Of a stretch of DNA of 64,000 nucleotides, positions 4,227 to 44,413 are shown piece after piece (position 1 is the first letter of the stretch; each line of letters opens with the position of its first letter). The DNA comes from an uncultured Candidatus Saccharibacteria bacterium (GTDB lineage: Bacteria > Patescibacteriota > Doudnabacteria > UBA920). The notes below the pieces were generated by a model, which was not told the DNA's origin, ran no database searches, and was given only the letters and a program-made list of their open reading frames with translations. The stretch covers positions 16,738 to 80,737 of the forward strand of contig CAZFQP010000003.1 in assembly GCA_964520505.1 (NCBI GenBank), in the 5' to 3' direction. A program made the translations under genes and the position numbers.

Positions 4227-5156
4227 ATGAAAGTATACCATGATCTTCTACAAAAATTATTGGATGACGGCGTACAAAAAGACGACCGCACCGGTGTAGG
4301 CACGCGCAGTGTTTTTGGCTATCAAATGCGGGTAGATTTAGCCAAAGGCTTTCCGCTGCTCACAACCAAAAAAGTAAACCTTAAAGCGGTAATTATCGAA
4401 CTATTATGGTTTTTAAAAGGGGAGACTAATATTCGTTTTTTGGTGCAAAATGACGTAAAAATTTGGAATGAGTGGGCTTACCAAATTTATTTGGAACAGG
4501 AGTATTTGTTGGAAAAGTATCCGCGCTATTCGCCGGAGTGGAAGGCTCATATGCTGGAGTTTGTGGAAAAAATTAAGGCTGACGATGAATTTGCTAAAAA
4601 GTACGGCGAACTGGGCCCTATTTACGGCAAGCAGTGGCGCCGCTGGGCAGGCCCGAATGGCGAGGAAATCGACCAGGTACAAAACATTATAGATTTAATT
4701 AATCAAGACCCGACTTCCCGTCGCATCATCATCAGCGGTTGGAACGTTGGCGAGATTCAGGAATTAATCCGCAATCATCACCACGCCCCGCCGCCTTGCC
4801 ACACTTTATTTCAGTTTATGGTCATTGACGGCAAGTTGTCTTGCCAGCTATATCAACGCAGCGCCGACGCGTTTTTAGGAGTACCGTTTAACATCGCTTC
4901 TTATGCTTTGTTTACTATGATGCTGGCGCAGGTTACGGGTTTGCAGCCCGGCGAGTTTATTCATACTTTCGGCGACTTGCATATTTATAATAATCATAAA
5001 GAGCAGGTTAAAGAGCAATTGTCGCGCGAACCCAGAGCTTTGCCGACTATGAAGCTAAACCCTGCGGTTAAAAATATTTTTGACTTTAAATACGAAGATT
5101 TTACTTTGGAAGGCTACAATCCTTACCCGCCAATTAAAGCGCCGATTGCCGTCTAA
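4227..5156 (+). CDS. thyA: thymidylate synthase (ThyA type, long form)
   Basis: dUMP-binding and catalytic region ([11 protein letters not shown] with Cys nucleophile); N-terminal [11 protein letters not shown]; 309 aa. Confidence 0.92.
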
Positions 5157-6228: not shown

Positions 6229-6636
6229 ATGGTGAAGAGTAAGCCGTATTCTCTTAAACTTGGGCAACAGCTTAACTTGCACCTCAAACAGCAAGCCAAG
6301 CTGGACAGCCGGCATCTTTCCGAGCAAATTCTGTATTTGCTGGAAGTGATGATTGCTGTTGCCAAACAGTCAAAAAATTTCCGGGTCAAACCGGAAAAAC
6401 AAGAGAGAATTGCGCAGAACTTAGGCGCAAAGTGTGATCTTCCGGAATGGCTGGATCTTGAAACGTTCAGCCTGGCGGGAGATTACGGCCTTACCCAGCA
6501 ACAGCTCATTCGAGCTCTTCTATGGATGGGTCTGGAGTTGGCCGAACAGCTCTGCCCTAAGGGGCAGACACTCAGAAAGGAGGAATTTGCCGGACTGATT
6601 TTGGAGCGGATCCATCAGCCGGCGCTTATCCAGTAA
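6229..6636 (+). CDS. hypothetical protein, N-terminus resembles a ribbon-helix-helix (CopG/Arc-like) DNA-binding fold; GC-richer than neighbours
   Basis: N-terminal pattern KPYSLKLGQQLNLHLKQQAKLDSRHLSEQILYLLE (beta-strand then two helices); own promoter and own terminator. Confidence 0.35.
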   Translation: MVKSKPYSLKLGQQLNLHLKQQAKLDSRHLSEQILYLLEVMIAVAKQSKNFRVKPEKQERIAQNLGAKCDLPEWLDLETFSLAGDYGLTQQQLIRALLWMGLELAEQLCPKGQTLRKEEFAGLILERIHQPALIQ

Positions 6637-6656
6637 AATAAAATGGAAACATCAAG

Positions 6657-6709
6657 TGGGGGCGACAGACGGACTTTCGCGGTTTAGCTGTCGCCCCTTA
6701 AATTTTTTT
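6657..6709 (+). terminator. Rho-independent terminator GGGGGCGACAG...CTGTCGCCCC + T-run
   Basis: 11-bp GC stem followed by TTAAATTTTTTT. Confidence 0.65.
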
Positions 6710-6727
6710 AATGCTATAATTACAGTA

Positions 6728-7822
6728 ATGAATGAACTTATAAAACGGCTGGAGAATCTTAAAACCTCCATTCTAAATTTACAATCCAGTTTAAATTTGC
6801 CGCAAAAAGAGCAGCGGATTTTGGAATTGGAAGATAAAATGCAAGCAGCGGATTTTTGGGCCGATAACCAGACAGCACAAAAAATTTCCCAGGAGCATAA
6901 TCAATTAAAAAAGTTTTATGATTTTTGGGTTAGCCTGGGCAAACAAACCGAAGAGGTTTTGGAATTAGTTAAACACAATCAGGACGAGTCGGACGAAACA
7001 AAAAGTTATTTGGAAAAACAAGCGGACGATTTGGAAGAGGAGTATAAAAAACACAGGTTTGTGGCTCTGTTGTCTAAAAAGTATGACGACCATAACGCGA
7101 TTTTTTCTTTGCATTCCGGCGCCGGAGGAGTAGACGCGCAAGACTGGGCGGATATGCTGCTGAGAATGTTTTTGCGCTACGCGGAAAAGCAGGGTTTTAG
7201 CACGGAAATTTTGGAACTGTCCCGCGGTGAGCAAGGAGGTTTGAAAACTTGTGTGGTGGAAGTACGCGGGCCTTATGCTTATGGGCTGTTTAAAAGTGAA
7301 GCCGGCGTGCATCGCTTAGTTCGTTTGTCGCCGTTTAATCCTGCCCACACGCGCGAGACTTCTTTTGCCCTGCTGGAGCTGCTGCCGCTTTTGGAAGAGC
7401 AGGAAGAAATGAAAATTGACCCGAAAGATTTGAAAATTGAAGCCAATACTGCTTCCGGCCACGGCGGGCAATCGGTTAATACCACTTATTCCGCCATTCG
7501 CATTACGCATATCCCGTCAGGAATAAAGGTGAGCATTCAAAACGAGCGTTCCCAGCACCAGAACCGGGAAATAGCAATGAAGATTTTAACCGCCAAACTA
7601 AAAACTCTGGAAGAAGAAAGATTGCAAAAAGAAAAACAGGACATTCGCGGCGAATTTAAGTCCGCGGAGTGGGGGAATCAGATCCGCTCTTATGTCCTAC
7701 ATCCTTACAAAATGGTTAAAGACCACCGGACTGGAATGGAAACTTCCGATCCCGAGAGCGTGCTGAACGGAGAACTTAGTGAATTTGTGGAAAGTTATTT
7801 GGAACACTTCGCCTCAAAATAA
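6728..7822 (+). CDS. prfB: peptide chain release factor 2
   Basis: SPF tripeptide motif (RF2-specific) and GGQ motif; start set at MNELIKRL (ATG 6728); continuous frame, no programmed +1 frameshift site. Confidence 0.9.
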   Translation: MNELIKRLENLKTSILNLQSSLNLPQKEQRILELEDKMQAADFWADNQTAQKISQEHNQLKKFYDFWVSLGKQTEEVLELVKHNQDESDETKSYLEKQADDLEEEYKKHRFVALLSKKYDDHNAIFSLHSGAGGVDAQDWADMLLRMFLRYAEKQGFSTEILELSRGEQGGLKTCVVEVRGPYAYGLFKSEAGVHRLVRLSPFNPAHTRETSFALLELLPLLEEQEEMKIDPKDLKIEANTASGHGGQSVNTTYSAIRITHIPSGIKVSIQNERSQHQNREIAMKILTAKLKTLEEERLQKEKQDIRGEFKSAEWGNQIRSYVLHPYKMVKDHRTGMETSDPESVLNGELSEFVESYLEHFASK

Positions 7823-40744: not shown

Positions 40745-42007
40745 TTAAATTTTCATTTCGTCAAAGGCCCAGGAAATTATTTCCAGCATTTGCGGATAGT
40801 TGGCCGCTCCCCTGTCTTGCGTGTAAAAATACAAAGTGTTGCCGACCAGTTCAATGTTTAGCTCAAACGGCAAATTGTAGATTTTTTCCATAAAATTCGG
40901 TGTGAGCAGCTCAAGAGAATTTATTTGGTCGCGCTCATCCGCCCAAAGCGAGAATTTATTATTAAAGTCCGCGCTTTCCAAAGACATTTTTTTAAGTCCC
41001 CATACCGGCAGCTGGAAAAACTTTTTCTTTTTTATAAGAATGTCATAGTATGTTTTTGGCAAGATGGCCTGGGCTATAACATAATTTTCCGGATTTTTGC
41101 TTTGGGTGTTTGGAATGTAAGTGTAAAATTCCACAATTTTACCCCTAAAGTAGCCAATGACGTGGTTGTTGATGTCGCTGCGGCCAAAGTTGGTTTGTTT
41201 AAATAGCACGCCCTTGTCGGGCATCATTAGCCAGCCAAAATCAGCGTCGTAATAAAAGTTATTTTGTTTGGCAAACTCAACTATATCCCCTTCTGTCATT
41301 GCGGCGTCTTCGGTTTCTTGGGTAATAAAATCCAAAATCCATTTTTTATCCGGTTTTTGCACTAAATGCCAGTATTCGGTAAAGCTGCTGTTGTCGGTAT
41401 AAAGCGGTTTGTTATTTTCCGTGTCCATTAAGACATCGTGAGCCGAGGCGGAAATTTGCAAAGTAAGTTTTTGCGTAGTTTCTCCGGGCTGTTCTTCCCC
41501 AACTACAAACATTTCGTAAACTGTCACATCGCTCATCGGGTTGGCGCGTTTTTCATTTTGCAACACAGACAATTCCAAAACCATGCGTTTGTAGTATTCG
41601 GGCGTAACCAGCTGCTCCATTGTTTTTAAATCAAACTCGCCCCAGGCTTTCTGGAAACTTTTAAAAAGATTTTCCACTTCCAACCGCAGCTGCGGCCAGT
41701 TTAAGTTGTTGCCGGAAATTATCTCCGCCTGCTTTTTCGCCATCATCTCTTTTCGTTTTTTGTTGGCAAAATATGCAATTACAGAGCCGACCACAAAAAT
41801 ACTCAAGGGGAAAAGCAGGAACCAAGGATCAAATTTACCACCCCCGCCGGATGAGTGGGAAGAATAAGAACCTCCGCTAAAACCACCGCCTCCCCCACCG
41901 CCTCCCCCACCGCCAGAACCACCACCCCCACCCCGCGCCAAAGCATACTGGGTAAAACTAATAAAACTAACAAGCAGTAAGGCAAAAACAAATTTTATTT
42001 TTTTCAT
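40745..42007 (-). CDS. membrane protein with signal peptide, poly-Gly/Ser stretch, TM helix and large C-terminal domain (possibly Tim44-like/NTF2-like), hypothetical
   Basis: GGGGGSGGGGGGGGGGGFSGGSYSSHSSGGGG run followed by a TM helix; start moved to MKKIKFVFALLL (42007). Confidence 0.4.
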   Translation of the reverse strand: MKKIKFVFALLLVSFISFTQYALARGGGGGSGGGGGGGGGGGFSGGSYSSHSSGGGGKFDPWFLLFPLSIFVVGSVIAYFANKKRKEMMAKKQAEIISGNNLNWPQLRLEVENLFKSFQKAWGEFDLKTMEQLVTPEYYKRMVLELSVLQNEKRANPMSDVTVYEMFVVGEEQPGETTQKLTLQISASAHDVLMDTENNKPLYTDNSSFTEYWHLVQKPDKKWILDFITQETEDAAMTEGDIVEFAKQNNFYYDADFGWLMMPDKGVLFKQTNFGRSDINNHVIGYFRGKIVEFYTYIPNTQSKNPENYVIAQAILPKTYYDILIKKKKFFQLPVWGLKKMSLESADFNNKFSLWADERDQINSLELLTPNFMEKIYNLPFELNIELVGNTLYFYTQDRGAANYPQMLEIISWAFDEMKI

Positions 42008-42201
42008 ATATCTACTTAGTTTATATTTGAAGTATATCAAAAAACATCCTAAGAATATAGGATGTTTTTTGAGCATATGCAAATAGATTAAAATTATCGA
42101 TAAAGGTGATTAATATTTACCCATTCAAAATTTATCAAATCGTTGACAAACTTTGAATGGGTGGGCAGAGTCGAATTTAACCCTGCCCGCCGTTGTTGTG
42201 T

Positions 42202-42705
42202 CTAGATGTCCAGGCTCGTGAGGCCTGATGGTTCCTGATCCCGGGTGGTTTCGGTTTTTTGCTTTACCACCGAAAACCAAACCCAGAGAATCAGTCCCAG
42301 CACAGCGCCCAATACGGAACCTTCGAAGGTGTTCACTATTCCATCCGGAGGCTGTCGGACAAGCCGTCGGAACTCGAAAATCTTGCTCTGATCCGACAAG
42401 CCCGGTTGGTTGAAGACCTCGGCCGCCTTCTTTTGGTTCCTGAACCAGAGGCCTATGTCTTTTTCCGGCGTGTTAGGCAGGAAATACACGGTGACGCCAC
42501 GGGTATACCCGCCCCTTTCCAAAAACTTGAGTGCTGCCTCGAAGCTTTCCGAGGCTTCTTTGGGATCGCCTGATCCCAAAGCCCTGCTGGTTGGGATGGT
42601 GTATCCCTCCCAGAAGTTGTAGGCCGGTATGGCGAACCAAAGAGCTAGGAGGGCACCCAACAGAACAGGTGCCAGAAGGGTTGATACCATTTTAATTCGC
42701 TTCAT
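42202..42705 (-). CDS. GC-rich hypothetical membrane protein (N- and C-terminal TM helices)
   Basis: GC ~52-55%; no recognisable motif. Confidence 0.4.
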   Translation of the reverse strand: MKRIKMVSTLLAPVLLGALLALWFAIPAYNFWEGYTIPTSRALGSGDPKEASESFEAALKFLERGGYTRGVTVYFLPNTPEKDIGLWFRNQKKAAEVFNQPGLSDQSKIFEFRRLVRQPPDGIVNTFEGSVLGAVLGLILWVWFSVVKQKTETTRDQEPSGLTSLDI

Positions 42706-42836
42706 TTAAATTTTTCCTCCACTTTTTCATGTGAGTCGAACATAATAAAATACCACATTTAGTGGTATTTTGTCAATCGCTTAGAACCTTTAAAATATTT
42801 TGGTTTATTAGTTTTTATGCTGGTGTAAAAAATTGG

Positions 42837-42880
42837 CAACATAAAAACCGCAGCTAATAGCTACGGTTTTTATGGCAGGG
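42837..42880. repeat. Left imperfect direct repeat (att-like) of the tRNA-Trp 3'-flank: AACATAAAAACC-[hairpin]-GGTTTTTATGGCAGGG
   Basis: Matches 44303-44348 with compensatory changes in the hairpin stem; includes a copy of the TGGCAGGG tRNA 3'-end complement. Confidence 0.55.
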
Positions 42881-42967
42881 AATAGTAAAGGATGTTAGAA
42901 CTATAATACAGCAATCCCAAAAGTATTTTTACATACCAACAATGATTTAAACAAAAATCCGATTTCT

Positions 42968-43552
42968 TTAAACTACTGGGCTATTTGTCATTTTAGGCTT
43001 TGCTTTATCAAGTACTTCCTCTATCTCCCTTTCGGATTCTGAAGTATTAAAATAATCTTCGCTGTAAGGATTCTGATTTGTTGCCATAACATCTCTAAAA
43101 AGAGCAACTAATTCTTGATGAAGTTCATCAAGTTTTTTTATCAAAAATTTGTTTACAATTCCTTGTTTTCGGCTAAAAGGGTAATTATTAGTTTCATTAG
43201 CGGTATCGGCATGACCAACTATTTGGTCACGAATCGTTTTTAAACCTGATTTTTCTAATAGCTCTGTAATTTCAGTTAACTTTTCACCTCTAGTATTTAC
43301 AAAATCTTTTCTATTCCAAAAGCTTATAACCCTTGGGTCTTTATCCAAAAGGGTGGCTGTAATAAGCAAACTGTCATGAAAACACACATTACAAATGGAC
43401 TTATAAAAAGCATCAATATTAGTTGATGTATCAAAATGTTTAAATCCATTTTTTTCTGGGTAGTCAGTAATACTTTTGCAATACGAAAGGTCGTATTTGG
43501 CTACAACTAACAAATCTGCAAGTTGATGATTATTGATTTGTGGTATATTCAT
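42968..43552 (-). CDS. hypothetical protein with Rx5H (HEPN-like) motif, third gene of AT-rich islet operon
   Basis: GC ~32%; motif KTIRDQIVGHADT fits the HEPN Rx4-6H signature; 23-bp overlap with upstream gene. Confidence 0.4.
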   Translation of the reverse strand: MNIPQINNHQLADLLVVAKYDLSYCKSITDYPEKNGFKHFDTSTNIDAFYKSICNVCFHDSLLITATLLDKDPRVISFWNRKDFVNTRGEKLTEITELLEKSGLKTIRDQIVGHADTANETNNYPFSRKQGIVNKFLIKKLDELHQELVALFRDVMATNQNPYSEDYFNTSESEREIEEVLDKAKPKMTNSPVV

Positions 43553-43949
43553 ATTTTTTGTTACACTCTTTCACATATTGATTCATTTCAGCCATATCGG
43601 ATAATGGCAGTATAGACATATTCTCTGTCATAAAAACTTTGAGTTTTTCAGGTATCTCGCCCTGTGTAGTCTTTTTAAAAATATCGTTAATTAGTTGTGC
43701 TTCTTGGTCATCGACGAAATGGCTTATATATGAATATGCTGTAACTAAATCATTATAATCTTTTTCTTTAAAATGCTTTATCTTTATAAGTTCATCAATA
43801 TAAACAATAAAAGCTTGTCTAATTTTGATTTTTGAGCAGGGCAATAATGATTCGCTTCTTGCAATACCGTCAACTCCTTTTCCTAGTGCTGCACCAAAGG
43901 CATTTATTATTTTTTCAGCTTCTTTTCCAGTCATAATATTATTCGACAA
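43530..43949 (-). CDS. hypothetical protein (139 aa), second gene of AT-rich islet operon
   Basis: No recognisable motif; translationally coupled to 42968 gene. Confidence 0.4.
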   Translation of the reverse strand: MSNNIMTGKEAEKIINAFGAALGKGVDGIARSESLLPCSKIKIRQAFIVYIDELIKIKHFKEKDYNDLVTAYSYISHFVDDQEAQLINDIFKKTTQGEIPEKLKVFMTENMSILPLSDMAEMNQYVKECNKKYEYTTNQ

Positions 43950-43954
43950 TTATT

Positions 43955-44221
43955 TTAGAAAATGAACCACCAAACAATTAAGCTAATACAAATTACCTGC
44001 CCAATCAGCGCATAAAATCCTATCAATGAAAAAAGAAATTTTAAAATTATACTTATATTTCTAGAGCTTCCTAATCTATCCGAGAAAACCCAACCGCGAG
44101 TAAATAAATCAATAAATCCTGCTACTAAAATTGTTATTGGAATCCACAGATAAAGTTGATTAAATATTAAGCCAACAATTAAGACAATAGCAGAAATGAT
44201 GATTGAAAGGTTGATTTTCAT
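43955..44221 (-). CDS. small 3-TM membrane protein (88 aa), first gene of AT-rich islet operon
   Basis: Three hydrophobic helices; 5-bp gap to next gene. Confidence 0.45.
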   Translation of the reverse strand: MKINLSIIISAIVLIVGLIFNQLYLWIPITILVAGFIDLFTRGWVFSDRLGSSRNISIILKFLFSLIGFYALIGQVICISLIVWWFIF

Positions 44222-44302
44222 TGTAATTTTATGCCTATTTTAGACTAAAATTATTATACCCCCGTTTACCCCACCCCGCAACTTTCACTTTTTCAATTCC
44301 GT

Positions 44303-44348
44303 AACATAAAAAACCATAACATCAGTTATGGTTTTTTATGGCAGGGGC
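44303..44348. repeat. Right direct repeat: terminator hairpin CCATAACATCAGTTATGG + T-run downstream of tRNA-Trp, overlapping the tRNA 3' end
   Basis: See 42837-42880. Confidence 0.55.
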
Positions 44349-44413
44349 GGTAGGAATCGAACCCACGCAAGCGGTTTTGGAGACCGCTGTACTACCATTA
44401 TACGACGCCCCCA
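44341..44413 (-). tRNA. tRNA-Trp (anticodon CCA)
   Basis: Cloverleaf: acceptor GGGGGCG/CGCCCCT, D-arm with TAATGGTAG, anticodon loop CTCCAAA, T-arm GTGGGTTCGATTCCTAC; CCA not fully encoded. Confidence 0.85.

Follow-up and report, generated by a model that had tools for sequence, protein, structure and literature searches.

Beside the tRNA-Trp gene of an uncultured, Doudnabacteria-related Patescibacteria bacterium, in a 64-kb stretch of contig CAZFQP010000003.1 (64,000 nucleotides, hereafter the window), lies an AT-rich islet of about 1.4 kb (positions 42881-44302). An original prediction, made from the letters of this DNA, had described here a compositionally deviant block without an integrase that holds a minus-strand operon of 88, 139 and 194 amino acids (aa), with a 23-nt overlap between the second and third genes, and this anatomy proved correct. 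The islet has a GC content of 30.7%, against a mean of 41.3% for the window (s.d. 2.8% in 1,422-bp windows); its GC is the lowest in the window, with only 0.24% of 1,422-bp windows as low and the minimum at 42901. Three closely packed minus-strand open reading frames (ORFs) occupy it, and it is positioned between tRNA-Trp and a displaced duplicate of the last 8 nt of that gene with a terminator (Table 1). Comparison with related genomes shows it to be an insertion at a recurrently used site, and the third gene encodes a protein with HEPN-superfamily features whose homologues recur on integrated elements. No integrase was found among the islet’s three ORFs, tblastn of the window with four recombinases from related loci gave nothing credible, and Rfam had no match in the islet apart from tRNAs.

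Table 1. Features of the islet and its borders, with positions in the window
Feature	Position	Strand	Remarks
tRNA-Trp (CCA)	44339..44412	minus	ARAGORN; Rfam tRNA 62.1 bits; integration target
Proximal repeat: tRNA 3' end, CATAAAAAACC, stem CATAAC/GTTATG, GGTTTTTTATG	44304..44346	minus	attL-like junction
Putative islet promoter: TTGCGG, 17 nt, TATAAT	44253..44281	minus	inferred by direct reading of the sequence
Gene 1, 88-aa basic, very hydrophobic membrane protein, ~3 transmembrane segments	43955..44221	minus	orphan
Gene 2, 139 aa from TTG; 134 aa from ATG 43934 (public gene calls)	43530..43949	minus	23-nt overlap with gene 3
Gene 3, 194-aa HEPN-superfamily protein, distant AbiU2 relative	42968..43552	minus	predicted RNase motif R108-x5-H114
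Conserved non-coding islet end with ATAGTTCTAACATCC (42904-42890)	42884..42967	minus	aligns with L003
Distal repeat: 8-nt pseudo tRNA 3' end CCCTGCCA (42880-42873) and hairpin 42874-42840	42837..42883	minus	attR-like junction

The putative promoter has a perfect -10 element (44258-44253), lies in a G-rich tract and ends 31 nt 5' of gene 1; a consensus scan missed it because the -35 element agrees at just three of six positions. The tract itself (GCGGGGTGGGGTAAACGGGGG on the minus strand, 44261-44279) marks the tRNA-proximal end of an islet that otherwise has ~30% GC, overlapping the spacer of the putative promoter, and may act as a recombinase site or form a structure.

Borders of the islet and the same slot in related genomes

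The two borders share an exact direct repeat of 14 nt, TTTTTATGGCAGGG, at 42867-42880 and 44333-44346. In a shuffle test of this repeat that counted matches with at most two mismatches only, 1.66 matches arose by chance against three found, two of them exact; a second exact copy is not expected by chance. Either copy sits in a hairpin of 16-18 bp, the distal one (I7, 42840-42874) folding at a dG of -22.6 kcal/mol (z -7.7) and the proximal one (I8, 44305-44340) at -19.2 kcal/mol (z -7.2). As originally described, the two have common flanks, CATAAAAA(A)CC...GGTTTTT(T)ATG, around unlike stems, and the complete flank-hairpin-flank pattern was found nowhere else in the window. The last 8 nt of tRNA-Trp fall within the proximal repeat. 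Compositionally deviant DNA is bracketed here by direct repeats that hold a tRNA 3' end, as in a tRNA-targeted island.

We reached related genomes through a look-up of the exact rpmG product and a DNA pattern scan of species-representative genomes. Three of them (L006, L007 and L014) carry the same tRNA-Trp gene, with equal coordinates relative to rpmG and an equal Rfam score of 62.1 bits. The closest genome found, L006 (with L015, from Candidatus Doudnabacteria metagenome-assembled genome (MAG) JACRDK01), is collinear with the window and 82-92% identical to it at the DNA level in the flanking genes. There, CCATAAAAACCGTAGCTAATTAGCTACGGTTTTTATG comes directly after tRNA-Trp, and the window’s distal terminator is 95.6% identical over 45 nt to this terminator, which the proximal hairpin stem does not resemble. 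Because the L006 terminator matches the distal copy and not the proximal one, the distal (left) copy is the ancestral tRNA-Trp terminator, which now appears to end the islet operon, and the proximal (right) copy an incoming, islet-borne terminator that now appears to serve tRNA-Trp. The ancestral terminator has thus been shifted by 1.46 kb, along with 8 nt from the tRNA 3' end. The original prediction had recognized both copies, and it is this assignment of old and new that we correct.

It had also reckoned with the repeats being ordinary terminators of the lineage. The hairpins do have the form typical of tRNA-Trp terminators in this lineage, but two copies occur in this genome only, and the duplication of the terminator with the 8-nt tRNA end is specific to it. 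We rejected the idea of merely two ordinary terminators because a tRNA 3' end forms part of the distal copy, whose orthologue is the lone terminator of L006. Across the four genomes compared (window 44304-44346; L006 6306-6346; L014 3468-3512; L007 3262-3310), the outer palindromic flanks of the tRNA-Trp terminator, CATAAAAA...TTTTTATG, are kept and the inner stems are unrelated and fully compensated.

The slot itself was found empty, occupied or differently occupied. In the more distant L014 (Patescibacteria MAG JAGWQI01), tRNA-Trp, a third stem variant of the terminator and a DUF3137/Tim44-like gene all lie within 160 bp and leave no cargo in the slot between tRNA-Trp and the DUF3137 gene. 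In L006 the terminator abuts the tRNA and other cargo follows, and the L007 slot holds other genes again, plus two further degenerate tRNA-Trp 3' ends, each then followed by a terminator. The islet’s three genes are not conserved at the tRNA-Trp/rpmG locus of these relatives. Since L014 is empty and L006 and L007 hold other cargo, the interval after tRNA-Trp is, as judged by these comparisons, a recurrent insertion site, and the islet is by the same comparisons an insertion at the tRNA 3' end, as the original prediction had proposed.

At the distal border, the segment 42884-42967 aligns with DNA 3' of a homologue of the 194-aa protein (59% identical) in L003, and the L003 stretch also ends in a tRNA-like sequence, ...GTCCCGCCA. 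A motif resembling ATAGTTCTAACATCC precedes the third terminator of L007, 1.4 kb downstream of tRNA-Trp. We regard 42884-42967 as a candidate element-borne recombination arm.

Several further observations concern the slot and its surroundings. In the L006 cargo (6474-7694, 30.4% GC), a membrane protein of 143 aa is paired with a HEPN_Cthe2314 protein of 229 aa, which scores 27.6 bits, more than the gathering threshold, and has an RKLISH motif; the membrane-plus-HEPN theme returns here with genes unrelated to those of the window. An inverted copy of the tRNA T-arm, GTAGGAATCGAAC, opens a GC-rich segment of ~165 nt downstream of tRNA-Trp in L007 (3300-3480), and a 22-nt near-copy of the 3' end of the tRNA closes it with a second terminator. 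The segment folds at z -3.2 and has no match in Rfam. A third pseudo 3' end in the same genome, GTCCCTGTCA, stands with a GGTTCTAACATC motif and a terminator at 4640-4720, 1.4 kb downstream. Taken together, these pseudo 3' ends and terminators resemble att scars in tandem.

Between the islet and the DUF3137 gene of the window, a 167-aa gene (42202-42705) has 53.8% GC against 41% for the window. Its product is an orphan with hydrophobic segments at the N and C termini. As L006 and L014 both lack the gene, it probably represents a second acquisition in this slot, independent of the islet. The 66 nt upstream (42711-42776), with a promoter-like TTGACA-18-TATTTT and a hairpin, are 86% identical to DNA upstream of a non-homologous 164-aa gene in L006 (9414-9477). 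The DUF3137/Tim44-like membrane protein conserved beside the slot (40745-42082) has a long glycine run, GGGGGSGGGGGGGGGGG, after its signal/transmembrane segment, and its L014 orthologue has the glycine run as well.

The HEPN protein and the neighbourhoods of its homologues

The sequence KTIRDQIVGH, read in the original prediction as a HEPN signature, corresponds to residues 105-114 of the 194-aa protein. A word-indexed search of 5.8 billion proteins returned 17 relatives (18 with the protein itself), and an exhaustive hidden Markov model (HMM) search of 1.84 billion gave 80 representative clusters, defined at 50% identity, at E<=1e-3. When 40 proteins with 15-47% identity to the query are aligned, R108 and H114 form the only invariant columns, so that R-x5-H is present in 40 of 40, and position 60 in helix 2 is D or E in 36 of the 40, in agreement with the acidic residue of HEPN domains. 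The window protein retains all family-invariant residues, and its close clade has conserved ISFWN and C-terminal KPxMT motifs of its own.

The AlphaFold2 model of the 194-aa protein is a helical bundle (pLDDT 87, pTM 0.84) with the four-helix up-down core of HEPN proteins, and a structural check that could have told against the HEPN reading left it standing. R108-x5-H114 falls in the C-terminal part of helix 3, which is kinked, just ahead of a low-confidence loop that leads to helix 4. This placement of the HEPN Rx4-6H motif, where helix 3 ends or the loop starts, and the local distortion match the description in Anantharaman et al. 2013 (PMC3710099). Foldseek with the model against the PDB gave nothing below E 0.3, and a sequence-profile search of the PDB returned noise only.

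Among Pfam families, PF18734 (HEPN_AbiU2) matched the 194-aa protein at 16.7 bits (E 0.005, model positions 40-168 of 193). Sub-threshold matches to it recurred in 11 of 18 close and 24 of 40 diverse relatives (best E-value 4.5e-5), with any other family matched in at most two, which makes it the sole Pfam family recurrently hit by the clade. Like the window protein, HEPN_AbiU2 proteins (including Lactococcus lactis AbiUii; Anantharaman et al. 2013) are single-domain, all-alpha, ~190 aa long and equipped with Rx4-6H, and both occur in restriction-modification and Abi neighbourhoods. The window clade differs in scoring below threshold across ~80 clusters at 50% identity, in having no AbiUi-like partner and in the ISFWN and C-terminal KPxMT motifs of its close members. 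Because every PF18734 score falls under the curated threshold, we place the 194-aa protein, from alignment and model, in a separate unannotated clade of the HEPN superfamily nearest AbiU2 and not as a formal PF18734 member. The original prediction of a novel module was borne out in its HEPN component, but the protein is less novel than it implied, since it belongs distantly to the described AbiU2 branch. It is predicted to be an RNase by analogy with characterised HEPN enzymes.

Homologues recur on integrated elements beside tRNAs, recombinases, restriction-modification genes and other Abi/HEPN genes. At L001, a tyrosine integrase, an excisionase-like helix-turn-helix protein and an AIPR protein precede the homologue and an HNH-like protein. 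At L009/L010, the homologue lies 370 nt on from tRNA-Gln, with an AbiV HEPN protein (29.4 bits), a large serine recombinase and a DNA methylase. At L011/L012, tRNA-Met abuts a serine recombinase and the homologue stands at the far end. At L013, the order is tRNA-Ser, a 1366-aa protein with weak, sub-threshold matches to AAA/NACHT-type ATPases, an 83-aa ORF, the homologue and a serine recombinase. At L017/L018 (L017 2-7539), the homologue is the last gene of an operon, with a 4-nt overlap, and adjoins tRNA-Arg, of whose 3' part a 19-nt repeat is present. The operon begins with an Eco57I-like type IIG methylase/restriction enzyme, followed by a 219-aa protein and a 1016-aa protein without a Pfam match, and may be an uncharacterised multi-gene defence system. 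The elements at L001, L009/L010, L011/L012 and L013 do carry recombinases, in contrast to the islet.

A near-perfect sister islet at L019 (2244-5220) begins with tRNA-Thr(GGT) and a terminator, continues with 2.9 kb at 41-46% GC in a genome of 53-64% GC, and ends in a 41-nt copy of the tRNA-Thr 3' half that has two mismatches; a terminator unlike the first comes after this copy. The segment carries a DUF4209 HEPN protein and the AbiU2-like homologue, and no integrase is present in it. A call for a 500-aa DHO_dh gene runs into the distal repeat, and its start was probably placed too far upstream. We also considered a 50-aa ORF beside tRNA-Thr as the remnant of an integrase N terminus and dropped it, as it has no Pfam support.

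Beyond these loci, a metagenome scan with a four-sequence profile yielded a single, truncated locus, and viral contigs scanned with the protein profile and with the end motif gave no match to either.

Partner genes, preferred explanation and rivals

The two upstream genes are orphans. The 88-aa product of gene 1 has a GRAVY value of 1.54 and hydrophobic blocks at residues 1-41 and 55-88, compatible with the three transmembrane (TM) segments first proposed; it has no family match in Pfam, PADLOC, NCBIfam or PHROGs, and its 90%-identity cluster has one member. The 134-aa form of the gene 2 product is modelled as all-alpha, with seven helices (pLDDT 63), is mildly acidic (pI 5.7) and is unrelated to the HEPN family. 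Just as the original prediction could match it to nothing, we found no family for it and only itself among 5.8 billion sequences. Searching all fetched loci by tblastn with the 88-aa and 139-aa proteins retrieved same-strain contigs only (L004 and L005 for the 88-aa protein). At L003, a truncated ORF upstream of the HEPN gene overlaps its start in the same way and has a similar C terminus (E 4e-4); the partner was seen just in this closest relative and was absent from nine other loci. We regard the 134-aa protein as a candidate regulator or antitoxin of the HEPN protein.

On balance, we favour the reading of a tRNA-Trp islet that has decayed or is mobilised in trans and that carries, as its functional cargo, a HEPN RNase of the Abi or toxin type, with the 134-aa protein as inhibitor or sensor and the membrane protein as accessory. 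Site-specific recombination would have placed the islet at the very 3' end of tRNA-Trp, the islet supplying its own tRNA end and terminator and displacing the original terminator downstream. One three-gene mRNA would run from the islet’s own promoter and probably end at the old terminator. The 194-aa protein would dimerise, its R108-x5-H114 motifs forming an RNase site as in characterised HEPN enzymes, and when triggered would cut cellular or phage RNA and halt growth, by the logic of abortive infection or of a toxin. The translationally coupled 134-aa helical protein may be a local, co-evolved inhibitor or sensor of the HEPN protein, and the 88-aa membrane protein may be an accessory.

A 3'-end sublocation class of tRNA-targeted genomic islands was reportedly defined by Williams in 2002. 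With such islands and their integrase-less, att-flanked cis-mobilisable derivatives, the islet shares a repeat that contains the tRNA 3' end, a tRNA restored by the element, an aberrant GC content, a site that is empty in relatives and a slot of variable content; it differs in its very small size (1.4 kb), in the mere 8 nt of tRNA that are duplicated and in a repeat that is mostly terminator. We know of no recombinase for the tRNA-Trp islet. Membrane-coupled HEPN defence is exemplified by Cas13b with Csx28. The islet likewise encodes a small membrane protein near a putative HEPN effector, a pairing also present in the equivalent slot of L006 (143-aa TM protein and HEPN_Cthe2314), but there is no sequence relationship, the islet’s genes are separate with a third gene between them, and coupling is putative. 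A further membrane-coupled case is the HEPN-TM of phage-inducible chromosomal islands (PICIs) (PMC12948488).

Several points weigh against the favoured reading. No member of the clade reaches the PF18734 gathering threshold of 26.8 bits (window protein 16.7). PADLOC v2, NCBIfam and PHROGs gave nothing consistent for the three proteins or, with PADLOC, for the 40 relatives, and the islet fits no system model among the anti-phage systems catalogued in PADLOC v2. Because the tRNA-derived part of the repeat is just 8 nt and the islet lacks an integrase, we infer the recombination mechanism from the form of the borders. Partners are not conserved across the family, and the three-gene system may therefore be an accident of neighbourhood. 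Nor was AbiUii (AbiU2) the protective part of lactococcal AbiU; it lowered AbiUi activity and reduced resistance, and the family name therefore cannot carry a defence claim. The proposed abortive-infection role is guilt by association with AIPR, AbiV, restriction-modification and DUF4209 HEPN neighbours. The original prediction had treated the three genes as one system. This did not survive: the unit is not a conserved system, because elsewhere the HEPN gene recurs alone or with unrelated, ever-changing neighbours.

Changing partners also bear on a doubtful but still tenable alternative, a toxin-antitoxin (TA) addiction module in which the HEPN protein is a constitutive toxin, the overlapping 134-aa protein its antitoxin and the main effect stabilization of the islet, not anti-phage activity. 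The gene order and the 23-nt overlap are typical of TA pairs, the closest homologue (L003, 59% identity) has the similarly overlapping upstream ORF with a related C terminus, and HEPN toxins from HEPN-MNT pairs are among the solved proteins closest in structure. However, homologues stand alone or with unrelated neighbours at L002, L009, L016/L020 and L019, which excludes a toxin that needs an antitoxin at such loci. The 134-aa partner, moreover, has no detectable match to a DNA-binding or antitoxin family. From the HEPN-MNT pairs (Shewanella SO_3166/SO_3165, PDB 5yep; 7ae2) the islet differs in that its partner is an all-alpha orphan and not an MNT nucleotidyltransferase; there is no sequence similarity, and the partner is not conserved beside homologues across the family. 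A strict TA dependency for the family as a whole is unlikely.

It is improbable that the islet is a functionless, decaying remnant, the cargo end of a larger tRNA-integrated element whose recombinase was lost and whose genes are drifting. The lack of an integrase, the size of just 1.4 kb, the orphan status of two of the three genes and the likewise integrase-less sister islet L019 would fit such decay. Yet none of the three closely packed ORFs is broken, the -10 box is perfect and the terminator strong; the window protein keeps every family-invariant residue; and the 88-aa and 194-aa proteins are 100% identical, with one difference in the 139-aa frame, in contigs of two other sequencing runs.

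We give similarly little credence to a bolder combination, in which the tRNA-Trp interval of Doudnabacteria-like Patescibacteria is a cassette-exchange hotspot and its cargo an undescribed three-component, membrane-coupled abortive-infection system. Tiny integrase-less islets would share the end motif ATAGTTCTAACATCC...CCCTGCCA and terminator, some recombinase would move them in trans, and the components would be the membrane protein, a helical adaptor and the AbiU2-like HEPN protein. A regulatory HEPN protein instead of a suicidal RNase is very unlikely: AbiUii reduced and did not confer resistance, and homologues often come last, as a small gene, in larger defence operons (L017, L013), as fits an accessory or regulator, but the absolutely conserved R and H with the helix-2 acidic residue are the pattern of catalytically active HEPN families.

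Meaning for Patescibacteria and the HEPN family

In aggregate, the locus is a documented case of genes acquired horizontally at a tRNA site in the ultra-small genome of a Patescibacteria member, with occupied, alternatively occupied and empty states, and the acquired genes at the tRNA-Trp slot are of the HEPN conflict type. HEPN conflict genes on tRNA-integrated islands are already well known, and the islet reveals no new principle; judged from its sequence, it is credible as a mobile defence or toxin cassette, though a fairly ordinary one. The novelty is modest: the HEPN clade, its orphan partners, the series of occupied, alternative and empty slots and a possible shared end motif of integrase-less mini-islets. 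Were the hotspot with a three-component system to prove true, it would place such a system in organisms regarded as defence-poor. The analysis also defines a rare, unannotated HEPN clade (R-x5-H, ISFWN, KPxMT), which travels with restriction-modification, AIPR, AbiV and DUF4209 genes on tRNA-integrating elements and is therefore a reasonable candidate for defence screens.

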